From assembly GCF_965641715.1 (NCBI RefSeq), contig NZ_OZ282453.1: DNA of 64,000 nucleotides; one strand, given 5' to 3'. Shown here piece after piece: positions 1 to 23,825 of the stretch; the first letter of the stretch is position 1; every line of letters starts with the position of its first letter. The position numbers and the translations under genes were made by a program. Under the pieces are notes generated by a model. That model made no database searches and was not told the DNA's origin. It saw only the letters and a list, made by a program, of their open reading frames with translations. This DNA is from Escherichia coli (GTDB lineage: Bacteria; Pseudomonadota; Gammaproteobacteria; Enterobacterales; Enterobacteriaceae).

Positions 1-1298
1 ATTGACGTTTTGACCGGATTATCCAGCACCGGCAGGCGTTCTATGGTAATGGTATAGGTCGATTCACGCGCGCCACTATTTCCGCCGCTGATGCCGACAT
101 TGCCCGTCAGAATAGGCAACATAGCAATAGCGCGTGCGGTCAGCTCACCGTTTGCCTGGCGTTGCGGCCCCCAGCCCTGGCAGATATAAGCGGGTTTTGC
201 TGTGCCAATTTCACGCGCCAGTTTGATGATACGGTCCTCCGGGATACCGGTAATTTGCGAAGCCCACTGCGGCGTTTTCGCTGTTTTATCGTCACCTTCA
301 CCAAGAATATAGGCTTTATAGTGACCATTTTTGGGGGCATCTGCGGGTAAGGTTTTTTCGTCATAGCCGACGCAGTATTTATCGAGAAAAGGTTGATCAA
401 CGAGATTTTCGTTAATCAATACCCAGGCAATACCCGCAACCAGCGCGGCATCGGTGCCCGGGCGAATAGGAAGCCATTCGTCTTCACGACCGGCAGCCGT
501 ATCGGTATATCGCGGATCGATAACAATCATTTTTGCGTTCGATTTTTCGCGCGCTTTTTCAAGAAGATAAGTGATGCCACCGCCGCTCATGCGGGTTTCT
601 GCTGGGTTGTTACCAAACATCACGACCAGCTTGCTGTTTTCAATATCCGTGGTGCTGTTGCCATCATTACTGCCGTAGGTGTAGGGCATGGCACAGGAAA
701 TTTGCGCAGTGCTGTAGGAGCCATACTGGTTGAGTGAACCGCCGTAGCAGTTCATCAGGCGTTTGACCGCCGAGGCTGATGGCGAAGAGCGGGTCATATT
801 GCCGCCAACGATCCCCGAAGAGTACTGAATATATACAGCCTCATTGCCATATTGTTCGACGGTTTTTTTCAGGCTACTGGCGATAGTATCCAGGGCTTCA
901 TCCCAGCTAATCCGTTCGAATTTGCCTTCACCGCGTTTACCCACGCGTTTCATTGGGTAATTCAAGCGATCGGGATGATTAATACGCCGGCGGATGGAGC
1001 GACCGCGCAAACAGGCGCGTACTTGATGATTGCCATACTCATCGCTGCCGGTGTTGTCAGTTTCCACCCAGGTCACTTCATTATCTTTAACATGTAGACG
1101 AAGTGCACAGCGGCTACCACAGTTGACGGAACAGGCACCCCAGACCACTTTTTCGCGGGCCTGTTGTACCGCTGCTGCTGCACTGCGCAGGGTAAACGGC
1201 AAAGAAAAACCGCCTGCAGCCAGCGCCAGAGAACCTATCGCGGTAGATTTAACGAGTGTTCTGCGGCTGATGCCCACCATTCGGTCATTTTTGGACAT
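1..1298 (-). CDS. ynfE: Tat-exported molybdopterin S-/N-oxide (DMSO/selenate-type) reductase catalytic subunit, N-terminal ~432 codons; the gene runs off the left edge
   Basis: Hand translation of the minus strand from ATG at 1298 gives MSKNDRMVGISRRTLVKSTAIGSLALAAGG...CSVNCGSRC, with a twin-arginine signal and an Fe-S Cys cluster. The frame stays open to position 1. It is absent from the ORF track only because there is no stop in the window. Confidence 0.9.
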   Translation of the reverse strand, partial: MSKNDRMVGISRRTLVKSTAIGSLALAAGGFSLPFTLRSAAAAVQQAREKVVWGACSVNCGSRCALRLHVKDNEVTWVETDNTGSDEYGNHQVRACLRGRSIRRRINHPDRLNYPMKRVGKRGEGKFERISWDEALDTIASSLKKTVEQYGNEAVYIQYSSGIVGGNMTRSSPSASAVKRLMNCYGGSLNQYGSYSTAQISCAMPYTYGSNDGNSTTDIENSKLVVMFGNNPAETRMSGGGITYLLEKAREKSNAKMIVIDPRYTDTAAGREDEWLPIRPGTDAALVAGIAWVLINENLVDQPFLDKYCVGYDEKTLPADAPKNGHYKAYILGEGDDKTAKTPQWASQITGIPEDRIIKLAREIGTAKPAYICQGWGPQRQANGELTARAIAMLPILTGNVGISGGNSGARESTYTITIERLPVLDNPVKTS

Positions 1299-1397
1299 AA
1301 CTCACTCCCTGTTCTTTATCGTTATATAAATGTTTATATATTGAATATTTAGCGCGCTAACAATAGAGGGGGTCTACCCATTTTGGGTTAAGAATTA

Positions 1398-1411
1398 TTA
1401 ATCCACATCAA
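1398..1411. promoter_or_regulatory. FNR-like box TTAAT-N4-ATCAA upstream of ynfE
   Basis: TTAATCCACATCAA matches 9 of 10 positions of the FNR consensus TTGAT-N4-ATCAA, about 100 nt upstream of the ynfE ATG. ynfEFGH is an anaerobic operon. Confidence 0.35.
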
Positions 1412-1496
1412 TAGAAGGGTATGAGTAATATGGTGGGATTATGTTGTATGTTCAAATCGCCGGATGTGTCATATCCGGCGTTCAGTCGATAATGTG

Positions 1497-1802
1497 TTAC
1501 TGCGGTTCGGCAGGCGCGCCATCCTGGGTAGACTGCGCGGGAGCAGAGACGTTAGCGCTGGTGGTGCGGGTGTAGAGAATTTTATGCGTATCATTAGCAC
1601 AATGCCCGACGACCTGGGAATCAGGCTGATCAACCTGGTCATTGGGTACAATACTTAACGTGAAGCTGCTTTCGGGTACGCCATTATTGATAATGCGCTG
1701 TGATATATCGCTCTGTATGCGCTCACAGGATCCCGGCGCGGCGAGTACCGCGGGTGAGGCGAGGGCGAGCAGAAGCGCGGCACAGCAGGTTGAGAGTTTC
1801 AT
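1497..1802 (-). CDS. ynfD: DUF1161 periplasmic protein
   Basis: ORF 1497..1844. The internal start MKLSTCCAALLLALASPAVLA (signal peptide) gives the 101-aa YnfD. Confidence 0.85.
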   Translation of the reverse strand: MKLSTCCAALLLALASPAVLAAPGSCERIQSDISQRIINNGVPESSFTLSIVPNDQVDQPDSQVVGHCANDTHKILYTRTTSANVSAPAQSTQDGAPAEPQ

Positions 1803-1909
1803 CATAAGCTCCTTACGCGAAGATAACTTCTTTAAGCATAGCATTTAACGTGTAAAGTACTGTATTTGCTACTATGATTGAGAATCATCTCTACTCTCTG
1901 GTGACTGTT

Positions 1910-2620
1910 GTGAAATACAAATTACTACCATGCTTACTCGCGATATTCCTCACAGGATGTGACCGCACAGAGGTAACACTTTCATTTACCCCTGAGATGG
2001 CCAGTTTCTCTAATGAATTCGATTTTGATCCGCTGCGTGGTCCGGTAAAAGATTTCACTCAGACATTAATGGATGAGCAAGGTGAAGTGACGAAACGTGT
2101 TTCGGGGACTTTGTCGGAAGAAGGCTGTTTTGATTCACTCGAATTACTGGATCTGGAAAATAATACCGTGGTCGCTCTGGTACTGGACGCCAATTATTAT
2201 CGTGATGCCGAGACGCTGGAGAAGAGAGTACGTTTACAGGGAAAATGCCAGCTAGCAGAATTACCTTCTGCCGGGGTGAGTTGGGAAACCGATGATAATG
2301 GCTTCGTGATTAAAGCCAGCAGCAAACAAATGCAGATGGAATATCGCTATGATGATCAGGGTTATCCACTGGGTAAGACCACGAAAAGTAACGACAAAAC
2401 ATTATCTGTCAGCGCCACGCCATCAACGGACCCGATCAAAAAATTAGATTACACAGCGGTTACTTTACTGAATAATCAACGAGTTGGTAATGTAAAACAG
2501 AGCTGTGAATATGACAGTCACGCCAATCCGGTGGACTGTCAGCTGATCATTGTTGATGAAGGAGTAAAACCCGCCGTCGAACGGGTTTACACCATCAAAA
2601 ATACAATCGATTATTATTAA
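1910..2620 (+). CDS. ynfC: UPF0257 lipoprotein
   Basis: ORF 1874..2620. A GTG start gives (M)KYKLLPCLLAIFLTGC with a lipobox and the 236-aa YnfC. Confidence 0.85.
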   Translation: MKYKLLPCLLAIFLTGCDRTEVTLSFTPEMASFSNEFDFDPLRGPVKDFTQTLMDEQGEVTKRVSGTLSEEGCFDSLELLDLENNTVVALVLDANYYRDAETLEKRVRLQGKCQLAELPSAGVSWETDDNGFVIKASSKQMQMEYRYDDQGYPLGKTTKSNDKTLSVSATPSTDPIKKLDYTAVTLLNNQRVGNVKQSCEYDSHANPVDCQLIIVDEGVKPAVERVYTIKNTIDYY

Positions 2621-2622
2621 TG

Positions 2623-3183
2623 CTATTGTGCGGTCGGCTTCAGGAGAGTCTGACCCGGTGTTTTGTGCTCTGCCAGATACTGATGCTGGAATATACACAT
2701 GCGAATGGCATTACGATATTGACCATTAATAAAGAACTCATGCATCAATTCACCTTCAACCGTAAAGCCAAGCTTGCGGTAAATGTGAATCGCTTTTTCA
2801 TTCTCTTTATCGACGATCAGATACAGCTTATAGAGATTGAGAACGGTGAAGCCATAGTCCATTGCTAATTTGGCGGCACGGGTTGCCAGACCTTTCCCCT
2901 GATACTCCGGGGAGATAATTATCTGAAATTCTGCGCGGCGATGTACATGGTTAATTTCCACCAACTCCACCAGACCGGCTTTTTCGCCGTCACATTCCAC
3001 CACAAAGCGTCGTTCGCTCTGATCGTGAATATGCTTATCATACAGATCAGAGAGTTCAACAAAGGCTTCGTAGGGTTCCTCAAACCAGTAACGCATCACA
3101 CTGGCGTTATTGTCGAGTTGATGTACATAGCGTAAATCTTCACGCTCCAGCGGGCGTAGCTTAACACTGTGGGCGCTTGGCAT
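2623..3183 (-). CDS. speG: spermidine N1-acetyltransferase (GNAT)
   Basis: The 186-aa [29 protein letters not shown]... matches SpeG. Confidence 0.95.
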
Positions 3184-6658: not shown

Positions 6659-7939
6659 TTAATTTTTCATTGCTTCGTTATGGGGCATGGTTGGGGCAAA
6701 CTCGCTTAACTGTGTATTTAACAAAGCTACCTGTGCATTATTGTTTTCAGACATCCATTTTCCGTATACCTGAAATACCATTTGCGCATCTGCATGGCCC
6801 ATCTGGTTTGCTATAAATGCCGGGTTAGCACCAGCTGTCAGCGACCAGCAGGCATAAGTATGTCTCGACTGATATGATTTTCGATGGCGGAGTCCGGCAC
6901 GTTTTATCGCTGCGTCCCACATCTGCCTTATTGAGTCAACGGTAAAATGGTCACCATAATTTTTTACTCTCGCTGACACTTCAGGTTGAAAAACAAAGGT
7001 GCATTTTTGTTTTTCTGTTCTGCCATACTCTCTCAGGTGAACATCAATGATATGCTCTTTGCTCAGTCTCGTTAATGTCATCTGACTCCGGAGAGCGTCG
7101 ATTGCTGGCTTAATAAGATGAATGACCCGATTGGTTCCCGCCTGTGTTTTTGGTACCGTGAAACGGTCTTTTGCTAAATTTCTCCTGATCATCATTGTTC
7201 CATTTTTCAGATCTATGTCCTCCCATCCAAGTGCACACAGCTCACCAGGGCGAATGCCAGTATAAACAGAAACACACCATAAATTTTTTGCTTGCTGATT
7301 TCTGCACGCATCGATAAGACGGATAAATTCCTCCCGCGAAAGAGGATCCGGAATGGTTCTTGATTCCTTTAATGGCGAGATCCCCTTAAACGGATTATCT
7401 GCCAGGTAACCGTTATCAACACCAAACTGGAACACGGCGTTAAGATTTGTCATGTAATTATTTACAGTTACAGCCGATCTCCCTGGTTGTGTAACAATAT
7501 AGTTACTTTTGGGGATCTGGTATCCAGTCAGTAGCTCTTTACGAACCTCCAGTAATTTTTCTTTATTAATCGATGAGGCAAGATTTTTTTCACCGATTAT
7601 GCTCAGGATATTTTTGATGACGGCACGGTATGTGTTGAGTGATGTTTTGGCGACTTCAGTTTCTTTCAGTGCCAGAAATTTTTCAGCCAGTTCTTTTATG
7701 GTTAAATCTTGTCGGGCCTCACCAAATTTTTCCAGATTGCGTGAGGAGGGAAACTGTTTTGCATAGTCGAAAACACCAGTTTTTATTGCGTAACAAACAG
7801 AGGCGCGTAGTTCACCTGCAACGCGCCTGTTTTTTGCTGTGTCAGGAACCCCCAGATTTTCCCTGACTCTTACGCCTTTATAAACAAACCAGATACGTAA
7901 TTTCCCTCCATGGTTTTCCACGCCTGTCGGATATTTCAT
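6659..7939 (-). CDS. intQ: tyrosine-recombinase phage integrase
   Basis: ORF 6659..7954. MKYPTGVENHGGKLRIWFVYKG... with a C-terminal catalytic region ...SRHTYACWSLTAGANPAFIANQMGHADAQMVFQVYGKW (R..HxxR..Y). Adjacent to attL. Confidence 0.9.
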   Translation of the reverse strand: MKYPTGVENHGGKLRIWFVYKGVRVRENLGVPDTAKNRRVAGELRASVCYAIKTGVFDYAKQFPSSRNLEKFGEARQDLTIKELAEKFLALKETEVAKTSLNTYRAVIKNILSIIGEKNLASSINKEKLLEVRKELLTGYQIPKSNYIVTQPGRSAVTVNNYMTNLNAVFQFGVDNGYLADNPFKGISPLKESRTIPDPLSREEFIRLIDACRNQQAKNLWCVSVYTGIRPGELCALGWEDIDLKNGTMMIRRNLAKDRFTVPKTQAGTNRVIHLIKPAIDALRSQMTLTRLSKEHIIDVHLREYGRTEKQKCTFVFQPEVSARVKNYGDHFTVDSIRQMWDAAIKRAGLRHRKSYQSRHTYACWSLTAGANPAFIANQMGHADAQMVFQVYGKWMSENNNAQVALLNTQLSEFAPTMPHNEAMKN

Positions 7940-7973
7940 TTCAACTTCTCTCATTAGTTAGTGTGGCTTTTAG

Positions 7974-8225
7974 TCAAGTAAGATGACGTCTTGGTCTCGC
8001 TGATGCCTGGCGCTCAATCCAGCGATCAATTTCTTCCAGGTTGTAAAAGCATGGACTGTTATCCCATGGCATACCGTCATGAGCGACATGCTTATATTCC
8101 CTTCCTTCCATAAACGATTTTTCCCGGGCCTTTTTTAACGTACCTTTTTTTATTCCTTTCAGCGCAATTAACTGCTCTTCGGATACCCATTTGCCGGGAG
8201 AGACAATCATGATTACTTCGCTCAT
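7974..8225 (-). CDS. excisionase-like protein
   Basis: 83-aa ORF immediately upstream of int on the same strand; the small basic C-terminus is typical of lambdoid Xis-like proteins. Confidence 0.6.
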   Translation of the reverse strand: MSEVIMIVSPGKWVSEEQLIALKGIKKGTLKKAREKSFMEGREYKHVAHDGMPWDNSPCFYNLEEIDRWIERQASARPRRHLT

Positions 8226-8297
8226 CGATTTCTTTATCTCTTACATCAGACGAGCGCCGGTTGCAGAATACCAGTCACAACCGGCGACAGTTGAACA

Positions 8298-10769
8298 TTA
8301 AGAATCAGCCTGACTCGGGATCAGTTTTTGCCAGATAACTGAAACGTATTTTGCCTGGTAACGGGCGTCATCAAGTGCATTATGGCGCTCACCTTCGAAT
8401 GGAATAGCCGTTCTGGCATCGAAATCTATGGCTTTCCCCAGCTCAACGATTGTGCGTACATCGCGATCGTTGTAGTAACGCCACGGGCAGGGGATCCCCT
8501 GCCGTTCGTATGAACGGCGCAAAATCGTGTTGTCGAAGTTGGCTCCATTTCCCCAAACCTGAACAAATAATTCACCGGAGTTTTCGTCGATAAATTCCCG
8601 CAATTGTAACAGTGCATCATCTAACGGGATTTCATCGGTCATAATGGCAGATTGTGCTTCGCGTGATTGCTTAAGCCACCATTTAATGGTGTCCCGATCA
8701 ATGACTCCGCCAGCAGTTTCCAGATCGATAGTCTTACTAAATTCCGGTCCTATATCTCCGGTTTGCGGATCGAAAAATATTGCACCTATTGAGATGATCG
8801 GTGCATCAGGATTTTTTCCCATGGTTTCAAGGTCGATCATTAGATGGTCACACGTCCTGCTGGTGGATGTGATTTCGTGATGACCGTTCACCTTAATTGA
8901 GTGATCTGCCGTCTCGCCAGTTTCATTATCGCTATTGTGATGCTGATTGCCGCCAGTGTTCTCCTTGTGTGGATGTTCAGCGCCTTCCATTTCCTCCGGA
9001 TCATCTTCCTGAACTTCAACCTGATACTCTTCATCGAATGTTTCTTGGTATGTTGCGTCGCCCATCACCGCGCCACAATCAGGGCAGTTGCCGCCGCCAG
9101 TCTGACCGCAGGCGGTGCAGACTTTTTCCACTTCCTGTTGCGCCACTGGTTCAGGCTGTTTCGTTTCTGGCTCGTTTTGTAACGCATTTGGGCTGTTTTG
9201 TTCCGCTTTTTGGTAGTTCCGTTCCGATTCATGCTGGTTCTGGTTCACAGAATCGCGGGTCTGGATCCCCTTAACCCATTTCGGATCATTCGGGTCACTA
9301 ATCCCTTCAACAAATTCACCATGTGATGCAGCAAGCAACTTATCGGCGTCAGGCTGGCTGATATTGGCTGCCTGCATAATTTTGTTTACTTCGTCAGCGG
9401 TAACTTTTATCGGCTCTGGTTGTTCTGAATCTTCAGCGGTATCTACATTTTGCGGTAAGCCCGTGTATGTGCCATTTTTTCGGGCAAAATATTCTTCTTT
9501 TGTGATTTCAGTGGCGCCAGCAGCCAGTGCCTTATCCAGACCAGAAAGTTTGTTTGCGCGACCGTATTTTTCTCCGTCCTTATCTGCGAAGAGGAAATAG
9601 AACGGCCCCTCACGCTCTACAGATGGTTCAGCTTCCGGCGCGGTTTCATTTTTTGGGATATCAGATACCTCAGTTTCCACTGCATCAGTTTGTGTTTCTG
9701 ATGACTGGAGAACATCAACAGTGCCCAGGTCTGTTTCTTCATTCTCAAACACGCCCTTTGTCGTCAGGTATTCGCAGATATATTTGTTCAGTGCTACGGG
9801 ATCTTTGTGAATGTCGATCGGACGCTCACGGACAAGGCCAAAAATAGTTTGGCGGTCGTAGCGAAGGGCATCAGGCTGTTTGCGCATTGATGCCGAGATA
9901 CGCTTCCAGTCTTCGCGGTCGTTGTCGATAACTTCTTTTTTTGCCCAGCGATGGATGCTGCCGTCAATGTTTCCGGCATCCACATCACCAGGCCAGAGAG
10001 CGTAGGCCAGTTCGTCATCCAGTGTTTTCCATGTCTGCTTGTATTCGCGATGAATGGCAGCAATGACCGGGCTGATTTTTCCTGTTGAATTTTCAGTGTA
10101 CTGTTGATTGGCTCTGGCGCGGGCGAGATCAACAACAGACGTGTATTTTCCGGTTTCCTTGCGTTCACCTTCGCGACGTTTTTTCCAGATGCGCATCTCT
10201 GCCTGAATTTCGGGCCATTTAGCACCAGGAATACATTTATGCTTAACCCACCCAATGGCGTGCAACTTAAGCTCCGGATACATGGCGTTAACTTCTGGCA
10301 TTTTCATCAACGCTTCAACGATATGTCCGTCGAATGTTGCCATGTCTTCCTGCAACAATTCCTGTGCGCTAATAACCATATCAACGGTGATGTTTTCACA
10401 TGTGTCGAACTTAACCATGACAGCGTTCTGTACTTCAGGGGCCAGCTTGTCAAAAGTGACGTTCATCGGATCGGATTCAGTCTCAACCGGGACAAAAGAA
10501 GCTGACTCCTCATCCCAGCGGTTTTCCTGCATATATTCAGCATCCCATGAATCGAGGGCAGGGCGGGGTATGCCAGGTTTATCCTCGCAGACAATAAATT
10601 TATAAGCGCAGTCCTGAGCAGCCGGATAATGTTCCAGGAACTGCCAGTGAAATTTTGCTCGAGCACGGCGTTCGTCGCCAGCTTCAATGGCTGTGGCTAC
10701 AGCCACAGCGCCTTCTTCCCTTGTTGCCAGTTCGTCAGGAATAGCGGCGCAAATAAAGACTTTACTCAT
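8298..10769 (-). CDS. ydfE: 823-aa multidomain early protein: YdfE-like N-terminal region, acidic linker, CxxC..CxxC zinc ribbon, C-terminal DEDDh 3'-5' exonuclease domain
   Basis: The N-terminus MSKVFICAAIPDELATREEGAV... matches the K-12 YdfE fragment. The C-terminus carries Exo motifs DLETMG, NGANFDNTILRR and HNALDDARYQAKY. Zinc ribbon: CTACGQTGGGNCPDCG. Confidence 0.8.
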   Translation of the reverse strand: MSKVFICAAIPDELATREEGAVAVATAIEAGDERRARAKFHWQFLEHYPAAQDCAYKFIVCEDKPGIPRPALDSWDAEYMQENRWDEESASFVPVETESDPMNVTFDKLAPEVQNAVMVKFDTCENITVDMVISAQELLQEDMATFDGHIVEALMKMPEVNAMYPELKLHAIGWVKHKCIPGAKWPEIQAEMRIWKKRREGERKETGKYTSVVDLARARANQQYTENSTGKISPVIAAIHREYKQTWKTLDDELAYALWPGDVDAGNIDGSIHRWAKKEVIDNDREDWKRISASMRKQPDALRYDRQTIFGLVRERPIDIHKDPVALNKYICEYLTTKGVFENEETDLGTVDVLQSSETQTDAVETEVSDIPKNETAPEAEPSVEREGPFYFLFADKDGEKYGRANKLSGLDKALAAGATEITKEEYFARKNGTYTGLPQNVDTAEDSEQPEPIKVTADEVNKIMQAANISQPDADKLLAASHGEFVEGISDPNDPKWVKGIQTRDSVNQNQHESERNYQKAEQNSPNALQNEPETKQPEPVAQQEVEKVCTACGQTGGGNCPDCGAVMGDATYQETFDEEYQVEVQEDDPEEMEGAEHPHKENTGGNQHHNSDNETGETADHSIKVNGHHEITSTSRTCDHLMIDLETMGKNPDAPIISIGAIFFDPQTGDIGPEFSKTIDLETAGGVIDRDTIKWWLKQSREAQSAIMTDEIPLDDALLQLREFIDENSGELFVQVWGNGANFDNTILRRSYERQGIPCPWRYYNDRDVRTIVELGKAIDFDARTAIPFEGERHNALDDARYQAKYVSVIWQKLIPSQADS

Positions 10770-20168: not shown

Positions 20169-20990
20169 ATGAAACTGGAAGATTTACCGAAATACTACTC
20201 CCCAAAATCCCCTGGCCTGACCGATGCATCGGCCTCAACGTCAAAAGATGCGCTGAGTATCACTGATGTGATGGCCGCGCAGGGCATGACACAGAATCGG
20301 GCTGAGATGGGTTTTTCTGCGTTCCTGGGGAAAATGGGCATCAGTATGAATGACAGGGCGCGGGCAACAGAATTACTGGCAGATTATGCACTCCGTCGGT
20401 GCGATCGTGTGGCGGCGTTGAGAAAACTTCCGGCAGAAATAAAACCGGTAGTGATGCGCATTATGGCTTCGTACGCTTTTGAGGATTATGCCCGCAGCGC
20501 AGCGAGTAAAAAGCAGTGCCCTTGTTGCTATGGGGAAAAATTTATTGAAAGCATAGTTTTTACAAACAAGGTCCAGTATCCGGATGGTAAGCCGCCGGTA
20601 TGGGCAAAGTGTACGAAAGGTGTGTATCCGTCTTACTGGGAAGAATGGAAAAAAGTCAGGGAGGTGGTAAAAGTTGCCTGTCCGGAGTGTGGCGGAAAGG
20701 GTGAGGTTTCCACCGCCTGTAAGGATTGCCGTGGGCGTGGTGTCGCCATTCATCGTGAAGAGTCGGTAAAACGTGGTATGCCTGTTATCAGAGATTGCCA
20801 GCGTTGTGGTGGTCGTGGCTATGAAAGACTACCATCAACGGAGGCATTTAATGCTATATGCGAGGTGACAAACCAGATAACACGCGCGTCATGGGAAAAA
20901 ACAGTTAAGAAATTCTATGATGCGCTGGTGACCCGGTTTGATATTGAAGAAGCATGGGCTGAGCGGCAGTTAAAAAAGGTAACTAGGTAA
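20169..20990 (+). CDS. quuQ: late-gene antiterminator Q (zinc-finger type)
   Basis: 273 aa with CPECGGKGE..CKDCRGRG..CQRCGGRG motifs. Followed by a PR'-like promoter and terminator. Confidence 0.8.
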   Translation: MKLEDLPKYYSPKSPGLTDASASTSKDALSITDVMAAQGMTQNRAEMGFSAFLGKMGISMNDRARATELLADYALRRCDRVAALRKLPAEIKPVVMRIMASYAFEDYARSAASKKQCPCCYGEKFIESIVFTNKVQYPDGKPPVWAKCTKGVYPSYWEEWKKVREVVKVACPECGGKGEVSTACKDCRGRGVAIHREESVKRGMPVIRDCQRCGGRGYERLPSTEAFNAICEVTNQITRASWEKTVKKFYDALVTRFDIEEAWAERQLKKVTR

Positions 20991-20995
20991 CAAGG

Positions 20996-21023
20996 TTGAT
21001 TTTTCCGGAATCTGTGGTAAATT
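20996..21023 (+). promoter_or_regulatory. PR'-like late promoter TTGATT-N16-TAAATT
   Basis: Resembles lambda PR' (TTGACT-N17-TAAATT) and lies immediately after Q. Confidence 0.6.
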
Positions 21024-21070
21024 CGTCATAATGATGGGCTTTTTATGCCTGACGTTAGAAGAGTTTCTAC

Positions 21071-21096
21071 AACCCGCCGCCGAGCGGGTTTTTTAT
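21071..21096 (+). terminator. tR'-like terminator
   Basis: AACCCGC-cgccga-GCGGGTT followed by TTTTTATT. Confidence 0.7.
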
Positions 21097-21133
21097 TGCG
21101 GAATTAATTACGGACCGTTATTATTCTGCTCCC

Positions 21134-21209
21134 GGCCCTTTAGCTCAGTGGTGAGAGCGAGCGACTCATAATCGCCAGGTCGCTGGTTCAAATCCAGCAA
21201 GGGCCACCA
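21134..21209 (+). tRNA. ileZ: tRNA-Ile2 (anticodon CAU, ileX/ileZ-like)
   Basis: Manual cloverleaf with acceptor GGCCCTT/AAGGGCC, anticodon loop CTCATAA, T-loop TTCAAAT and a 3' CCA. Close to E. coli ileX. Confidence 0.85.
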
Positions 21210-21216
21210 TCACAAA

Positions 21217-21296
21217 CCGCCATTAGCTTATCAGGAAGAGCAGACGACACGATAACAGGGTTGTTGGTGCGGGGGCGGGTCCCCGATGGCGGTCCA
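21217..21296 (+). tRNA. degenerate tRNA-like element (possible pseudo-tRNA, argN position)
   Basis: The acceptor (CCGCCAT/ATGGCGG, then T-CCA), D stem (GCTT/GAGC) and a 5-bp T-like stem all pair. The anticodon arm is aberrant (11-nt loop) and the T-loop lacks TTC. Confidence 0.3.
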
Positions 21297-21309
21297 TTAT
21301 CGGTATTCA

Positions 21310-21386
21310 GCGTTGTTAGCTCAGCCGGACAGAGCAATTGCCTTCTAAGCAATCGGTCACTGGTTCGAATCCAGTACAGCGCGCCA
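21310..21386 (+). tRNA. argO: tRNA-Arg (anticodon UCU)
   Basis: Acceptor GCGTTGT/ACAGCGC, anticodon stem ATTGC/GCAAT with loop CTTCTAA, T-loop TTCGAAT, CCA end. Confidence 0.85.
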
Positions 21387-21523
21387 TATTCATTCTTCCA
21401 GATTCCTTCCGGCAGAGCCTTATACTGGAATATACCTGGCTCAGGATATTGTTGAAAACATAATATGTTTGTCAAAAATAAAAGTTCTGTTAAGTATTGA
21501 TTGAGTGTTTGTTATACGGTCTA

Positions 21524-21850
21524 ATGGTTTTTTCAGCATTAAATATTTATCATTCATATGGTGTGGGTAGAGTGAATATTGATGAGGCGTCGGGGTGTTT
21601 CATCCTTAGGCAGCGTATTGATATAGTCAATGCAGCACGAGCAAAGGCCTTCAGCCGTTTGACAGTTTTGTTCTGTGCTCCTGATCGTCTTTCGGGAAGA
21701 GACGTTATTATTCTGAATAGTGATGCTATACAGAGGGTTTGCGATGAGTTCATGGTTGCTAATTCAGAATTATTTGCTCTTGTTCAGGAGTACAACAGAA
21801 TAGCTAGGACCTGTGGTATGGATGAACTTCGGATTACTCATCTGGGGTAG
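21524..21850 (+). CDS. hypothetical 108-aa protein (117 aa from TTG 21497)
   Basis: ORF-track entry 21497..21850. No SD and no recognisable motif. Confidence 0.35.
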   Translation: MVFSALNIYHSYGVGRVNIDEASGCFILRQRIDIVNAARAKAFSRLTVLFCAPDRLSGRDVIILNSDAIQRVCDEFMVANSELFALVQEYNRIARTCGMDELRITHLG

Positions 21851-22324
21851 ATACATATCTGGATTATCACCTGTTACGGTAAAAAGTGATTGCTTACTGT
21901 TTTTGTGAATGGCATTGCAGCAGCCGGATAATGTCAGTGCTGGCTGACGGTGTGCTGGTGGCGGGTGTGGTGGTTGTTGCTTTCCCGTTGCTGAAAAAGA
22001 AAACGCCAGACTGTTAGCCGGGTATCAGTTAGCGGGAGAAATTTTTAAATACTTCACAATTCAGGCGGTTGACTGTTCTCTGGTTTGCGGGGAGTTTGTT
22101 AAAAGAAACTGGCATGGTGAATCCCCCTGTGCGGAGGGGCAATCAGCGAGTAGGTATATGGGATAATCGCGGATTCAGGTGCTGGTACTGAATTCACCGG
22201 GAGGCACCCGGCACCATGCACTTCAATAGATTCTCTCCACATTATGGATATTCTTTCAGAATATCCCACGCAGACTTTGTGTAAATGTTAACAAATGTGC
22301 GTTTTATTTGATCTGATTCGCTGT

Positions 22325-22354
22325 TTGAGCATCCAAAACAACGGTATATATAAT
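22325..22354 (+). promoter_or_regulatory. predicted sigma70 promoter TTGAGC-N18-TATAAT for the TolA-like lipoprotein genes
   Basis: Perfect -10 hexamer 30 nt upstream of the ATG at 22384. Confidence 0.45.
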
Positions 22355-22383
22355 CCTTTACTATATGACATATGTGAGGAAAA

Positions 22384-22812
22384 ATGGGTTTTCGTAGCGC
22401 ATCAATTCTTACGTTGATTATTAGTGGGATTATTATCGGGTGCACTGATGCTGTATCGACAAATTATCATGACCGTACATCATATTACTCCGATAAAGCA
22501 ATAGAGACACAGTATGTGAGTTCATCTGAACGTACTTCTGATGTTAGTGAGGATATCCGTCTGTATGCCCATCAAATCAAGAGCGCCATCGAAAAACAGT
22601 TCGGGGATGCGAGTAAGTATTCAGGAAAAGAGTGTACACTGAGAATGCATATGGCCCCGAATGGCCTTCTACTGGAGGTTAAAAGAGAAAGTGGAGACCT
22701 CGATTTATGTCGTGAAGCGATGAATGCGATAAAGAATGCTGATATACCTGCCCCCCCTTCGCCGGAAGTATATAAAGTATTTCAAAATGGGGTGCTGGAT
22801 TTTAAACCCTGA
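22384..22812 (+). CDS. lipoprotein with TolA C-terminal (domain III)-like domain, copy 1
   Basis: Lipobox IIGC. C-terminus YAHQIKSAIEKQFGDASKYSGKECTLRMHMAPNGLLLEVKRESGDLDLCREAMNAIKNADIPAPPSPEVYKVFQNGVLDFKP, compared with TolA YAGQIKSAIESKFYDASSYAGKTCTLRIKLAPDGMLLDIKPEGGDPALCQAALAAAKLAKIPKPPSQAVYEVFKNAPLDFKP (from memory). Confidence 0.85.
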   Translation: MGFRSASILTLIISGIIIGCTDAVSTNYHDRTSYYSDKAIETQYVSSSERTSDVSEDIRLYAHQIKSAIEKQFGDASKYSGKECTLRMHMAPNGLLLEVKRESGDLDLCREAMNAIKNADIPAPPSPEVYKVFQNGVLDFKP

Positions 22813-22962
22813 TATTTATTGTTTTGTAATAAACGGTTTCGGCTTAGGTTTGTTCTGACACAACTACGGCACTGAGCTAAATTTAGCGGATAGTCAGCTC
22901 TGAGCCAGTGGCGGACGTAACAACTACTATTGCTGAGATTTTAATGGATTGAGGAGCAAGAA

Positions 22963-23358
22963 GTGGGATTAAAGAAAATCGTTATGTTGACTTTTTGGGT
23001 CGGTTTTGTTGCGGGATGCACACCTTTACACCCTTCAGATTGCCACAAAACTACTGCTACAGGTAGTTGCAGTTCAGGACGCTGGGATGATCAGGATGAA
23101 TGGGGGGCGCAAGCGCGGGGAATCAGAGCTGCAATTAATGCCAAACTTGATGAGCCGCATAACTGGAAAGGGAAAAAATGCAGGTTGCATATGGAATTCT
23201 CTCAGGATGGCACGGCGTTAAAAATATCTACCAGTAACGGTGATAAAGCCTATTGCGAAGCGATAAAGTCCGCAGCTCATAAAGCCAAATTTCCGGCCTT
23301 CAACAATCCGGAAGTCTACAGAGATTTTCAGAAATCTGGCTTTGACATGCGAGGTTAG
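22963..23358 (+). CDS. lipoprotein with divergent TolA domain III-like domain, copy 2
   Basis: SD GAGGAG then GTG. Lipobox VAGC. ...IRAAINAKLDEPHNWKGKKCRLHMEFSQDGTALKISTSNGDKAYCEAIKSAAHKAKFPAFNNPEVYRDFQKSGFDM keeps the two Cys residues and the EVY..F block. Confidence 0.75.
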   Translation: MGLKKIVMLTFWVGFVAGCTPLHPSDCHKTTATGSCSSGRWDDQDEWGAQARGIRAAINAKLDEPHNWKGKKCRLHMEFSQDGTALKISTSNGDKAYCEAIKSAAHKAKFPAFNNPEVYRDFQKSGFDMRG

Positions 23359-23483
23359 CTCTTCAATTACTATATCTCATTCATAGCAAACTGACAGATT
23401 TGATGATGTTCTATATACGAAACCTGTGATGTCAAGTCTGAGCTAATACAAATAAACATAATATCAGAGAAATACATTTTATT

Positions 23484-23506
23484 AGCTCGCTACGGCGAGC
23501 TTTTTA
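23484..23506 (+). terminator. rho-independent terminator after the TolA-like gene pair
   Basis: AGCTCGC-tacg-GCGAGCT followed by TTTTT. Confidence 0.7.
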
Positions 23507-23609
23507 TATTGCATCGTCTCCAGCATATATATCAATTAAGGCTCTGATTGATGTGTCTGGAGGCCTACACATAATAACTATGCCATCCGTTCCGTGCGGA
23601 GGTGAGGCT

Positions 23610-23825
23610 ATGAAATCCATGGACAAAATTTCAACAGGTATTGCCTACGGCACCTCCGCAGGCAGTGTTGGCTACTGGTTTTTACAGCTGCTCGATAAAG
23701 TCACGCCCTCACAGTGGGCAGCAATAGGTGTGCTGGGTAGCCTGGTATTTGGCCTGCTGACGTACCTGACAAATCTTTATTTCAAGATTAAAGAAGACAG
23801 GCGTAAGGCTGCGAGAGGAGAGTAA
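23610..23825 (+). CDS. essQ: phage-21-type pinholin (dual-start MKSM motif)
   Basis: [71 protein letters not shown] (71 aa), approximately S21. Confidence 0.9.

Follow-up and report, generated by a model that had tools for sequence, protein, structure and literature searches.

Two tandem prophage lipoproteins carrying TolA domain III: a mobile cassette of candidate co-receptor decoys

Why should a lambdoid prophage carry, in the slot where Shiga toxin (Stx) phages carry stx, a tandem pair of small lipoproteins built on the C-terminal domain of a host envelope protein? The case is posed by a 64,000-nucleotide stretch of Escherichia coli DNA (assembly GCF_965641715.1, contig NZ_OZ282453.1; hereafter the window), in which a first-pass annotation made from the letters alone had reported two tandem prophage lipoproteins carrying domain III of TolA (TolA-III), the periplasmic hub that many colicins and filamentous phages grab for entry. 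We confirm both open reading frames (ORF1, or type A, and ORF2, or type B), both lipoboxes and a match of each protein to Pfam PF06519, and their homology to TolA-III lies far beyond chance. We give roughly an even chance to the reading that the two genes form a lysogenic-conversion moron for two TolA-III decoys that, by prediction from their sequences, are tethered to the outer membrane on its periplasmic side. The support for decoy function is circumstantial, drawn from genomic context and inference.

ORF1 matches PF06519 with E = 2.4e-23 (82.6 bits, against a gathering threshold of 25 bits) and, in phmmer, the TolAIII chains of the PDB (1s62, 3qdp, 1tol) with E of about 1e-28. Its residues 57-142 align by BLASTP with TolA 336-421 at 52 of 86 identical positions and with zero gaps, a 60% identity that falls well short of the 'almost residue-for-residue' correspondence claimed at first. 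The protein ends in LDFKP, as does TolA, and its cysteine pair C84/C109, a predicted disulphide, keeps the 25-residue spacing of TolA C363-C388. The sequence otherwise reads as annotated, a 142-residue protein with lipobox IIGC and both domain cysteines, preceded by a GAGG Shine-Dalgarno motif 4 nt upstream and beginning with the n-region MGFR and a hydrophobic core, with Thr at position +2 after the lipobox cysteine. The TolAIII fold of ORF1 is inferred from its gapless 60% identity to solved chains, its own single-sequence AlphaFold model being poor (predicted local distance difference test score, pLDDT, of 56) and left unused.

ORF2 is the more distant relative, with 32% identity to TolA domain III, E = 1.3e-14 against PF06519 (54.6 bits, same threshold) and E of about 5e-9 against the PDB chains in phmmer. 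Its AlphaFold model, built from a 69-sequence alignment, reaches a mean pLDDT of 80.5 with domain residues 45-131 mostly above 90, and superposes on TolAIII 3qdp with E = 8e-9, a target-normalised template-modelling (TM) score of 0.89 and a root-mean-square deviation of 1.1 Å, other TolAIII complexes coming next in the structural ranking; the TolA-III fold proposed for it is thus borne out. The same model gave no significant match in the BFVD library of viral structures. The cysteines C73 and C98, again 25 residues apart as in TolA, are predicted to form a disulphide. ORF1 and ORF2 share 29% identity and belong to separate subfamilies, each of which also occurs alone, so that of the earlier description of copy 2 as a divergent paralogue the cysteine pair and the fold stand and a recent paralogy does not. 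On the same two grounds, a recent tandem duplication of the pair was rejected.

The GTG start of ORF2 is supported by an ATG at the same codon in plasmid orthologues. The NCBI Prokaryotic Genome Annotation Pipeline (PGAP) places the start seven codons downstream of this likely GTG, and its calls for both ORFs hide the lipoprotein signal peptides. Between signal peptide and domain, the ORF2 family carries a linker, C27-HKTTATGS-C37-SSGRWDDQDEWG, that contributes two extra cysteines, is of a type absent from TolA, and is conserved like the domain itself in phage, plasmid and chromosomal copies. As a side observation, its Gly/Ser-Trp-acidic-Trp pattern faintly resembles, in sequence, the colicin TolB box (ColE9 GASDGSGWSSENNPW), the resemblance of SGRWDDQDEW to DG(S/T)GWSSE...W being weak.

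Neither protein is a TolA. Lipoboxes were called as signal peptides ending in [LVI][ASTVI][GAS]C with Asp at +2 excluded; in Enterobacterales, lipoproteins without Asp at +2 go to the outer membrane, and with a lipobox and Thr at +2 both proteins are predicted outer-membrane lipoproteins. Their N-termini are cleavable lipoprotein signal peptides in place of the inner-membrane anchor of TolA domain I, and the long Ala/Lys-rich helical domain II is likewise absent, the linkers being flexible, about 25-35 residues long and non-helical in models. Matches to full-length TolA profiles cover only positions 293-386 of 387 (NF007065) and 265-362 of 362 (TIGR02794). Since domains I and II are missing and the C-terminal profile positions alone match, we conclude that these are not TolA proteins, although they share with E. 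coli TolA-III (residues ~334-421; 1S62, 3QDP, 1TOL, 3QDR, 2X9A) the fold and the cysteine spacing: unlike TolA, they have no coupling to TolQR or to the proton motive force, and their predicted placement is on the opposite side of the periplasm. NF007065 scores are 107.8 for ORF1 and 53.7 for ORF2, against a cut-off of 213; TIGR02794 scores are 75.6 and 47.2, against 59.45, and the pass of ORF1, due to domain III alone, explains the 'TolA' annotations given to such genes. The corresponding PHROG entry, 5772, reads 'unknown function', neither ORF has a match in the PADLOC catalogue of defence proteins, and we found no functional study of such TolA-III proteins in the literature, which offers only passing mentions of plasmid 'tolA' genes, in keeping with the initial statement that no function had been characterised.

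The annotations also raise the possibility that ORF1 is a dead tolA fragment acquired by a phage. PGAP labels it 'tolA, pseudogene, missing N-terminus' in some RefSeq genomes (e.g. NZ_CP075627.1) and a full 'cell envelope integrity protein TolA' in others, and a protein above the TIGR02794 cut-off invites a pseudogene call. This explanation is highly improbable. Both its intact architecture and the selection on it contradict such a fate: ORF1 is complete with Shine-Dalgarno motif, signal peptide and lipobox; variants at 66-91% identity all retain the lipobox and the 142-residue length; the ratio of nonsynonymous to synonymous substitution rates (dN/dS) is 0.33 against the variant of E. coli 89-3156; and the gene is present at 99% identity or more in 781 complete E. 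coli genomes, alongside dozens of diverged clusters of the same architecture. With a dN/dS of 0.08-0.13 for ORF2 against its plasmid, Enterobacter and Serratia orthologues, both genes are under purifying selection.

The two genes travel together as a cassette. Its left edge (near 22193) falls within an STnc100-like element, and at its right edge similarity decays inside the 5' end of the holin gene. At 41.4%, its guanine-cytosine (GC) content is lower than the 49.8% of the prophage. In about 157 prophage loci of IMG/VR, ORF1, ORF2 and the spacers that follow them are at least 98.7% identical, whereas Q, the tRNAs, DUF3927, holin, ydfR and lysozyme genes are variable or absent, with the Q, tRNAs and DUF3927 of the window type found in only about 40% of these loci. 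The commonest background resembles the K-12 Rac prophage and has a different Q, no tRNAs, an Rz/Rz1-like pair, a trkG-like gene and another lysozyme, which we interpret as a signal-anchor-release endolysin. In E. coli 89-3156 a lone, diverged ORF1 directly follows Q, a methyltransferase gene, tRNA-Ile and tRNA-Arg, with a nanS-p-like esterase gene downstream, in a late region like that of Stx phages; this variant occupies the stx position. The cassette thus moves among Qin-like, Rac-like and Stx-like late regions.

The promoter-like site ahead of ORF1 is the joint-best consensus match across 20900-23700; in the Rac-like background its hexamers are identical, with one spacer base changed, and the intrinsic terminator is unchanged. 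A promoter-like site and a terminator, atypical composition, and presence or absence between related phages are the marks of a moron, and the earlier call of a moron with its own signals at an stx-equivalent site is upheld by these consensus matches, by the low GC content and mosaic distribution, and by the Q-tRNA-to-holin slot together with the 89-3156 variant. The likeness to lambdoid morons such as stx, bor and lom extends to low GC content, predicted promoter and terminator, and mosaic spread, and to stx in particular through the shared slot; the cargo differs, and we know of no virulence role for the TolA-III cassette.

Just upstream of the promoter-like site, straddling the left joint, lies the element of the STnc100 small RNA (sRNA) family. 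Further STnc100 elements occur at other loci (Table 1), and 89-3156 has one copy after its ORF1 variant and four in tandem before the nanS-p-like esterase gene. The element has the appearance of a repeated unit, about 200 nt long, that flanks morons in lambdoid late regions, and could be a recombination joint or an sRNA.

Table 1. Positions of the features discussed. Plain numbers refer to the window; an L number marks another locus.
Feature	Position	Strand	Remarks
Late antiterminator Q	20169-20990	+	Pfam PF03589, E = 9e-55
tR'-like terminator	21071-21090		Downstream of Q, upstream of ORF1
tRNA-Ile2(CAT)	21134-21209		
tRNA-Arg(UCU)	21310-21386		
117-aa ORF	21497-21850	+	Between tRNAs and DUF3927 gene
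DUF3927 gene			Between 117-aa ORF and ORF1/ORF2 cassette
STnc100 sRNA family element	22083-22273	+	Rfam RF02076, 114 bits; gathering score 47
Mobile cassette with ORF1 and ORF2	22193-23560 (about)	+	Limits from alignment with Rac-like locus L023
Sigma-70 promoter-like site	22325-22354	+	TTGAGC-18 nt-TATAAT, consensus match 10/12
ORF1, TolA-like type A lipoprotein	22384-22812	+	142 aa; signal peptide, linker, TolA-III
ORF1 signal peptide and lipobox IIGC	Cys20 codon 22441-22443		Residues 1-20
ORF1 linker	22444-22545		Residues 21-54, Ser/Thr/Tyr-rich
ORF1 TolA-III domain	22546-22809		Residues 55-142
ORF2 Shine-Dalgarno GAGGAG	22951-22956	+	6 nt ahead of GTG; read from sequence
ORF2, type B TolA-III lipoprotein	22963-23358	+	131 aa; GTG start
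ORF2 signal peptide and lipobox VAGC	Cys19 codon 23017-23019		Residues 1-19; Thr at +2
ORF2 Cys-loop linker	23020-23094		Residues 20-44; C27...C37, SSGRWDDQDEW
ORF2 TolA-III domain	23095-23355		Residues 45-131
Intrinsic terminator (predicted)	23484-23506	+	GC-rich 7-bp stem, 4-nt loop (23484-23501), then T5
S21-type holin gene	23610-23825	+	Lysis cassette gene 1; Pfam PF04971, E = 9e-36
ORF1 stretch called tolA pseudogene by PGAP	L002:8353-8613		Equivalent to window ~22552-22812
Small secreted TonB-CTD-only protein	L003:1841-2206	-	
Small secreted TonB-CTD-only protein	L176:2946-3392	-	
Small secreted TonB-CTD-only protein	L187:5112-5570	+	
144-aa periplasmic protein	L187:5567-6001	+	Translationally coupled between TonB_C and TolA-III genes
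Sec-type soluble TolA-III protein (110 aa)	L175:6001-6333		Tail-to-tail with secretin gene
Secretin gene (442 aa)	L175:6391-7719		Tail-to-tail with TolA-III gene
TolA-III lipoprotein gene, Klebsiella IncF plasmids	L005:5229-5777		Directly after thioredoxin-fold gene
Other STnc100 elements	L023:3704-3890; L184:5468-5680 and 7440-8419		

The pair proved to be a small part of a much wider distribution. A HMMER scan run exhaustively over 1.84 billion representative proteins returned 333 clusters at E of 1e-3 or below, and architectures were surveyed in the best 150 of these (50% identity representatives). Of the 150, 71 are 100-190 residues long, at least 41 of them with a lipobox and about 10 with a plain Sec signal, and no lipobox member among the 71 has Asp at +2. 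The 25-residue cysteine spacing is kept in 53 of 56 short members bearing the GKxC motif. An additional search with a profile of the family recovered almost entirely proteins already found. ORF1 and ORF2 represent two subfamilies of this large and mobile family, the members of which are secreted, have TolA-III as their only domain and are for the most part lipoproteins. Its hosts include Serratia, Kosakonia, Hafnia, Klebsiella, Enterobacter, Leclercia and Dryocola, and its carriers include CloDF13-like bacteriocin plasmids, IncI-complex and IncF plasmids (among them pO157), phage-plasmids and chromosomal islands. About one in four complete E. coli genomes has at least one TolA-III-only gene: ORF1-type DNA occurs in 887 of 5426 (16%), nearly always on the chromosome, and ORF2-type DNA in 1268 (23%), including 525 places on plasmids.

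ORF2 orthologues with about 88% amino-acid identity are present on some 600 Escherichia and Shigella plasmids. In pO157 the gene sits in the leading region, after psiB-psiA-hok; in IncK2/Z-type plasmids, which encode a type I mating-pair system that makes pili, it directly follows the relaxase genes nikA-nikB and adjoins trbABC. ORF2-type genes at 78-89% identity are also found as single chromosomal genes in Enterobacter, Citrobacter, Serratia, Raoultella and Klebsiella oxytoca. The Enterobacter gene is syntenic amid housekeeping-type genes, with 15 further similar places beyond those listed, and the Serratia gene adjoins GmrSD/HEPN defence genes. Elsewhere, a member of another subfamily lies downstream of Q in a Hafnia prophage, and a contig of about 110-120 kb, phage-plasmid-like in appearance, carries a family member. 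In Klebsiella michiganensis, a tandem of an ORF2-type gene (49% identity to ORF2) and a TolA-type gene (41% to ORF1) stands directly upstream of cdiB/cdiA-like genes, so that the type A plus type B pairing of the window recurs in a very distant setting.

Several contexts bear on function, as TolA-III lipoproteins recur beside small secreted proteins that consist of the C-terminal domain of TonB (TonB-CTD). These TonB-CTD-only proteins are 121-152 residues long, one with a Sec signal and two with lipoboxes. On CloDF13-like 10-kb plasmids of Klebsiella, the gene of a TolA-III lipoprotein (lipobox LTAC) overlaps that of such a protein in an operon, and the pair is divergent from cloacin-like bacteriocin, immunity and lysis genes. 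A metagenomic locus (L176) has, in order, a TonB_C lipoprotein, a pore-forming colicin domain, an immunity-like membrane protein, a Bor lipoprotein, a TolA-III lipoprotein and a second immunity-like gene; the Bor homologue next to a TolA-III gene is a further likeness to lambda bor. On large plasmid-like contigs of Enterobacter and Leclercia, a translationally coupled operon runs from a TonB_C lipoprotein through a 144-aa periplasmic protein to a TolA-III lipoprotein, with Ter genes and a retron-like pair of reverse-transcriptase and SLATT genes in the vicinity; the 144-aa protein, which has no Pfam match, may be a third component. The pairing thus recurs in three mobile contexts unrelated to one another, two of them with colicin genes alongside. 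The TonB-CTD-only proteins may be decoys for the TonB-dependent import route, and the simplest reading we can infer for their pairing with TolA-III beside colicin genes is that of decoys for both import routes. Further circumstantial support for a decoy role comes from the ORF2 orthologues in transfer or leading regions of plasmids that encode pili, from the tandem next to cdiB/cdiA-like genes and from the Hafnia prophage.

CloDF13 itself has the unrelated genes K and L in the slot of the TolA-III/TonB-CTD pair. That proteins K and L might be frameshifted TolA and TonB homologues was tried by tblastn and rejected; given this negative result, the slot holds different cargo.

Other neighbours of family members were recorded along the way. 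A soluble, Sec-type TolA-III gene and a secretin gene (L175) adjoin a truncated acrA, which suggests an inserted element, possibly filamentous-phage-like or pilus-related. On Klebsiella IncF plasmids a TolA-III lipoprotein gene comes immediately after a Dsb-like gene of the thioredoxin fold, and on IncK2/Z plasmids a DsbC-family gene lies near the ORF2 orthologue, among trb genes; these Dsb-like and DsbC-family genes could be tied to disulphide formation in TolA-III.

How would such proteins act on invaders? According to PMC4339652 and PMC3365938, ligands attach to TolA-III by beta-strand addition: beta3 is the site for TolB, colicin N and g3p-N1, and beta2 (residues 375-380), together with K368, K379 and K396, that for colicin A; the former paper gives affinities of about 1 uM for colicin N and about 40 uM for TolB. 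TolA is present at 400-800 copies per cell, and in current models it stays beneath the peptidoglycan until it is energised (PMC8928145). In ORF1 the beta3 edge strand LDFKP is retained exactly, and the colicin A site reads LLEVKR where TolA has LLDIKP; both K379 and K396 are retained, and K368 is replaced by His. In ORF2 the beta3 pattern is kept (FDMR) and the colicin A face is charge-reversed by E78, K87 and S89 (K368E, D377K, K379S).

In the proposed decoy mechanism, the cassette promoter would drive ORF1 and ORF2 in the lysogen while the terminator would keep transcripts out of the holin and lysis genes, and after induction Q-modified polymerase would read through that terminator. Decoys tethered to the outer membrane would meet colicin translocation domains or g3p before inner-membrane TolA: as TolA is scarce and rests below the peptidoglycan, and the decoys would sit under the outer membrane, invaders would be trapped by them first, and unproductively, since the decoys lack domains I and II and the link to TolQR. 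Tolerance of the cell to group A colicins and Ff/If1-type phages would follow, the two subtypes probably covering different ligands, and given the difference in affinity between colicin N and TolB, modest decoy levels might block invaders at little cost to Tol-Pal.

A number of points weigh against decoy function. Binding, localisation and expression of the decoys, as well as the phenotype, are predictions, as are the promoter and terminator of the cassette, which were called by consensus match. Identity of ORF1 to TolA is not enriched at ligand contacts, where it is 44-70% against 60% overall (11 of 16 positions in alpha2, 7 of 10 in beta3 and 4 of 9 in the colicin A site), and the contacts show no specific sign of ligand retention. 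Enterobacter and Serratia carry the ORF2-type gene stably, as a single chromosomal copy amid housekeeping or defence genes, which could indicate an envelope role endogenous to the host. Were a decoy to bind the N-terminus of TolB, it might bring about a tol phenotype by itself. Finally, the cassette stands directly upstream of the lysis genes, with which co-induction is expected, and a CP-933O gene that one paper likens to TolA is reported there to be induced 32-fold by ciprofloxacin.

Some of these points lead to a different use of the domain, in which ORF1 and ORF2 would modulate the host Tol-Pal system on behalf of the element, binding the TolB N-terminus or Pal at the outer membrane and locally disabling TolA-driven release of TolB from Pal. 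The resulting looser outer membrane might ease phage lysis and release, increase vesicles or toxin release, help colicin out of plasmid hosts, or induce Rcs and capsule and with them broad phage resistance. The place of the cassette directly upstream of the holin gene, on the Q-dependent late transcript, is consistent with such a role, as are the exact retention of the TolB-binding beta3 strand in ORF1 and the homologues that adjoin colicin lysis genes; according to PMC4339652, a full tol phenotype results when mutations in TolA block its contact with TolB. However, the cassette carries a promoter and a terminator, which suggest expression in the lysogen, beyond lysis alone, the family is also found on plasmids and at chromosomal loci without a lysis function, the repeated TonB-CTD partners would have no role, and the TolA-TolB affinity is weak. 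On balance we regard modulation of Tol-Pal as unlikely.

The chromosomal genes suggest yet another explanation, an endogenous envelope function unrelated to invaders, for example that of a chaperone or adaptor at the outer membrane that uses the TolA/TonB-CTD fold to bind some other beta-strand ligand, with the phage and plasmid copies as ordinary cargo. This would fit the syntenic, single-copy, chromosomal ORF2-type genes of Enterobacter, the strong constraint on ORF2, which includes the distinctive Cys-loop linker, and its charge-reversed colicin A face. Most of the contexts examined, however, are mobile or related to competition (prophage late regions, colicin loci, transfer regions, a phage-plasmid, a contact-dependent inhibition locus, defence islands), and we know of no such gene in E. 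coli K-12, so that the gene is not needed for envelope function. We accordingly assign an endogenous role a low probability. The decoy reading, held at even chances for the cassette of the window, also has a broader and more tentative form, which we would place somewhat below even: Enterobacterales mobile elements may widely deploy envelope-tethered mimics of the TolA and TonB tips (TolA-III lipoproteins of two cooperating subtypes, often paired with TonB-CTD proteins) as a general layer of 'co-receptor decoy' immunity, directed at bacteriocins that depend on Tol or TonB and at filamentous phages specific for pili.

The prophage of the window is a lambdoid E. coli prophage resembling K-12 Qin. 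ORF1 and ORF2 lie on the same strand between Q and the holin gene, which is followed by DUF1327, lysozyme and a DUF2514 protein annotated rzpQ. The stretch with both genes is identical in phage mEp460_ev081, the sole carrier among 50,697 deposited phage genomes, and in many E. coli chromosomes. The 117-aa ORF upstream, for which Pfam and PADLOC gave no match, co-occurs with the Q/tRNA background of the window type in IMG/VR loci.

By analogy, the nearest systems to the proposed decoys are laboratory TolA-III overproduction, g3p-mediated tolerance and the Cor and Llp lipoproteins. Levengood-Freyermuth, Click and Webster (1993) reportedly found that export of TolA-III to the periplasm makes wild-type cells colicin-tolerant and leaky; free periplasmic TolA-III competing with TolA is the mechanism proposed here, but that construct was artificial and soluble and its cells leaked, whereas ORF1 and ORF2 are natural, mobile, of two subtypes and predicted to be lipid-anchored. 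Cor (phi80, N15, HK022) and Llp (T5) are phage outer-membrane lipoproteins that disable the FhuA entry route of phages and colicins and so protect the lysogen or infected cell. ORF1 and ORF2 would resemble them as small phage outer-membrane lipoproteins with a protective lifestyle, yet have no kinship with them in sequence or fold; moreover, Cor and Llp are presumed to act by inactivating a receptor in the outer membrane, while TolA-III lipoproteins would mimic a periplasmic co-receptor and compete with it. The tolerance of Ff-infected cells involves the same g3p-N1/TolA-III interaction and likewise combines superinfection immunity with colicin tolerance, but there g3p blocks the real TolA, whereas a TolA-III copy would block the ligand of the invader, a mirror-image strategy. 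The domain itself is a clear member of PF06519; the idea put forward is that of a natural, mobile and, by prediction, lipid-anchored family of co-receptor decoys.

The analysis also bears on annotation: genes now labelled 'TolA', 'tolA pseudogene' or 'colicin import membrane protein' can be given a mended annotation. Colicins and plasmid-dependent filamentous phages have been proposed as targeted antibacterials, and genes of the ORF1 and ORF2 types bear on such use, the carriers of the latter including pO157 and IncI-complex resistance plasmids. If the proteins are decoys, phages and plasmids would protect their hosts by copying a host co-receptor and parking the copy at the point of entry, in contrast to known examples, which alter the surface receptor or neutralise the toxin. 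Among natural isolates of E. coli and Klebsiella, many withstand colicins or klebicins although they have no cognate immunity gene; decoys could explain this, and would then contribute, in a way so far overlooked, to the high colicin resistance seen in natural isolates.

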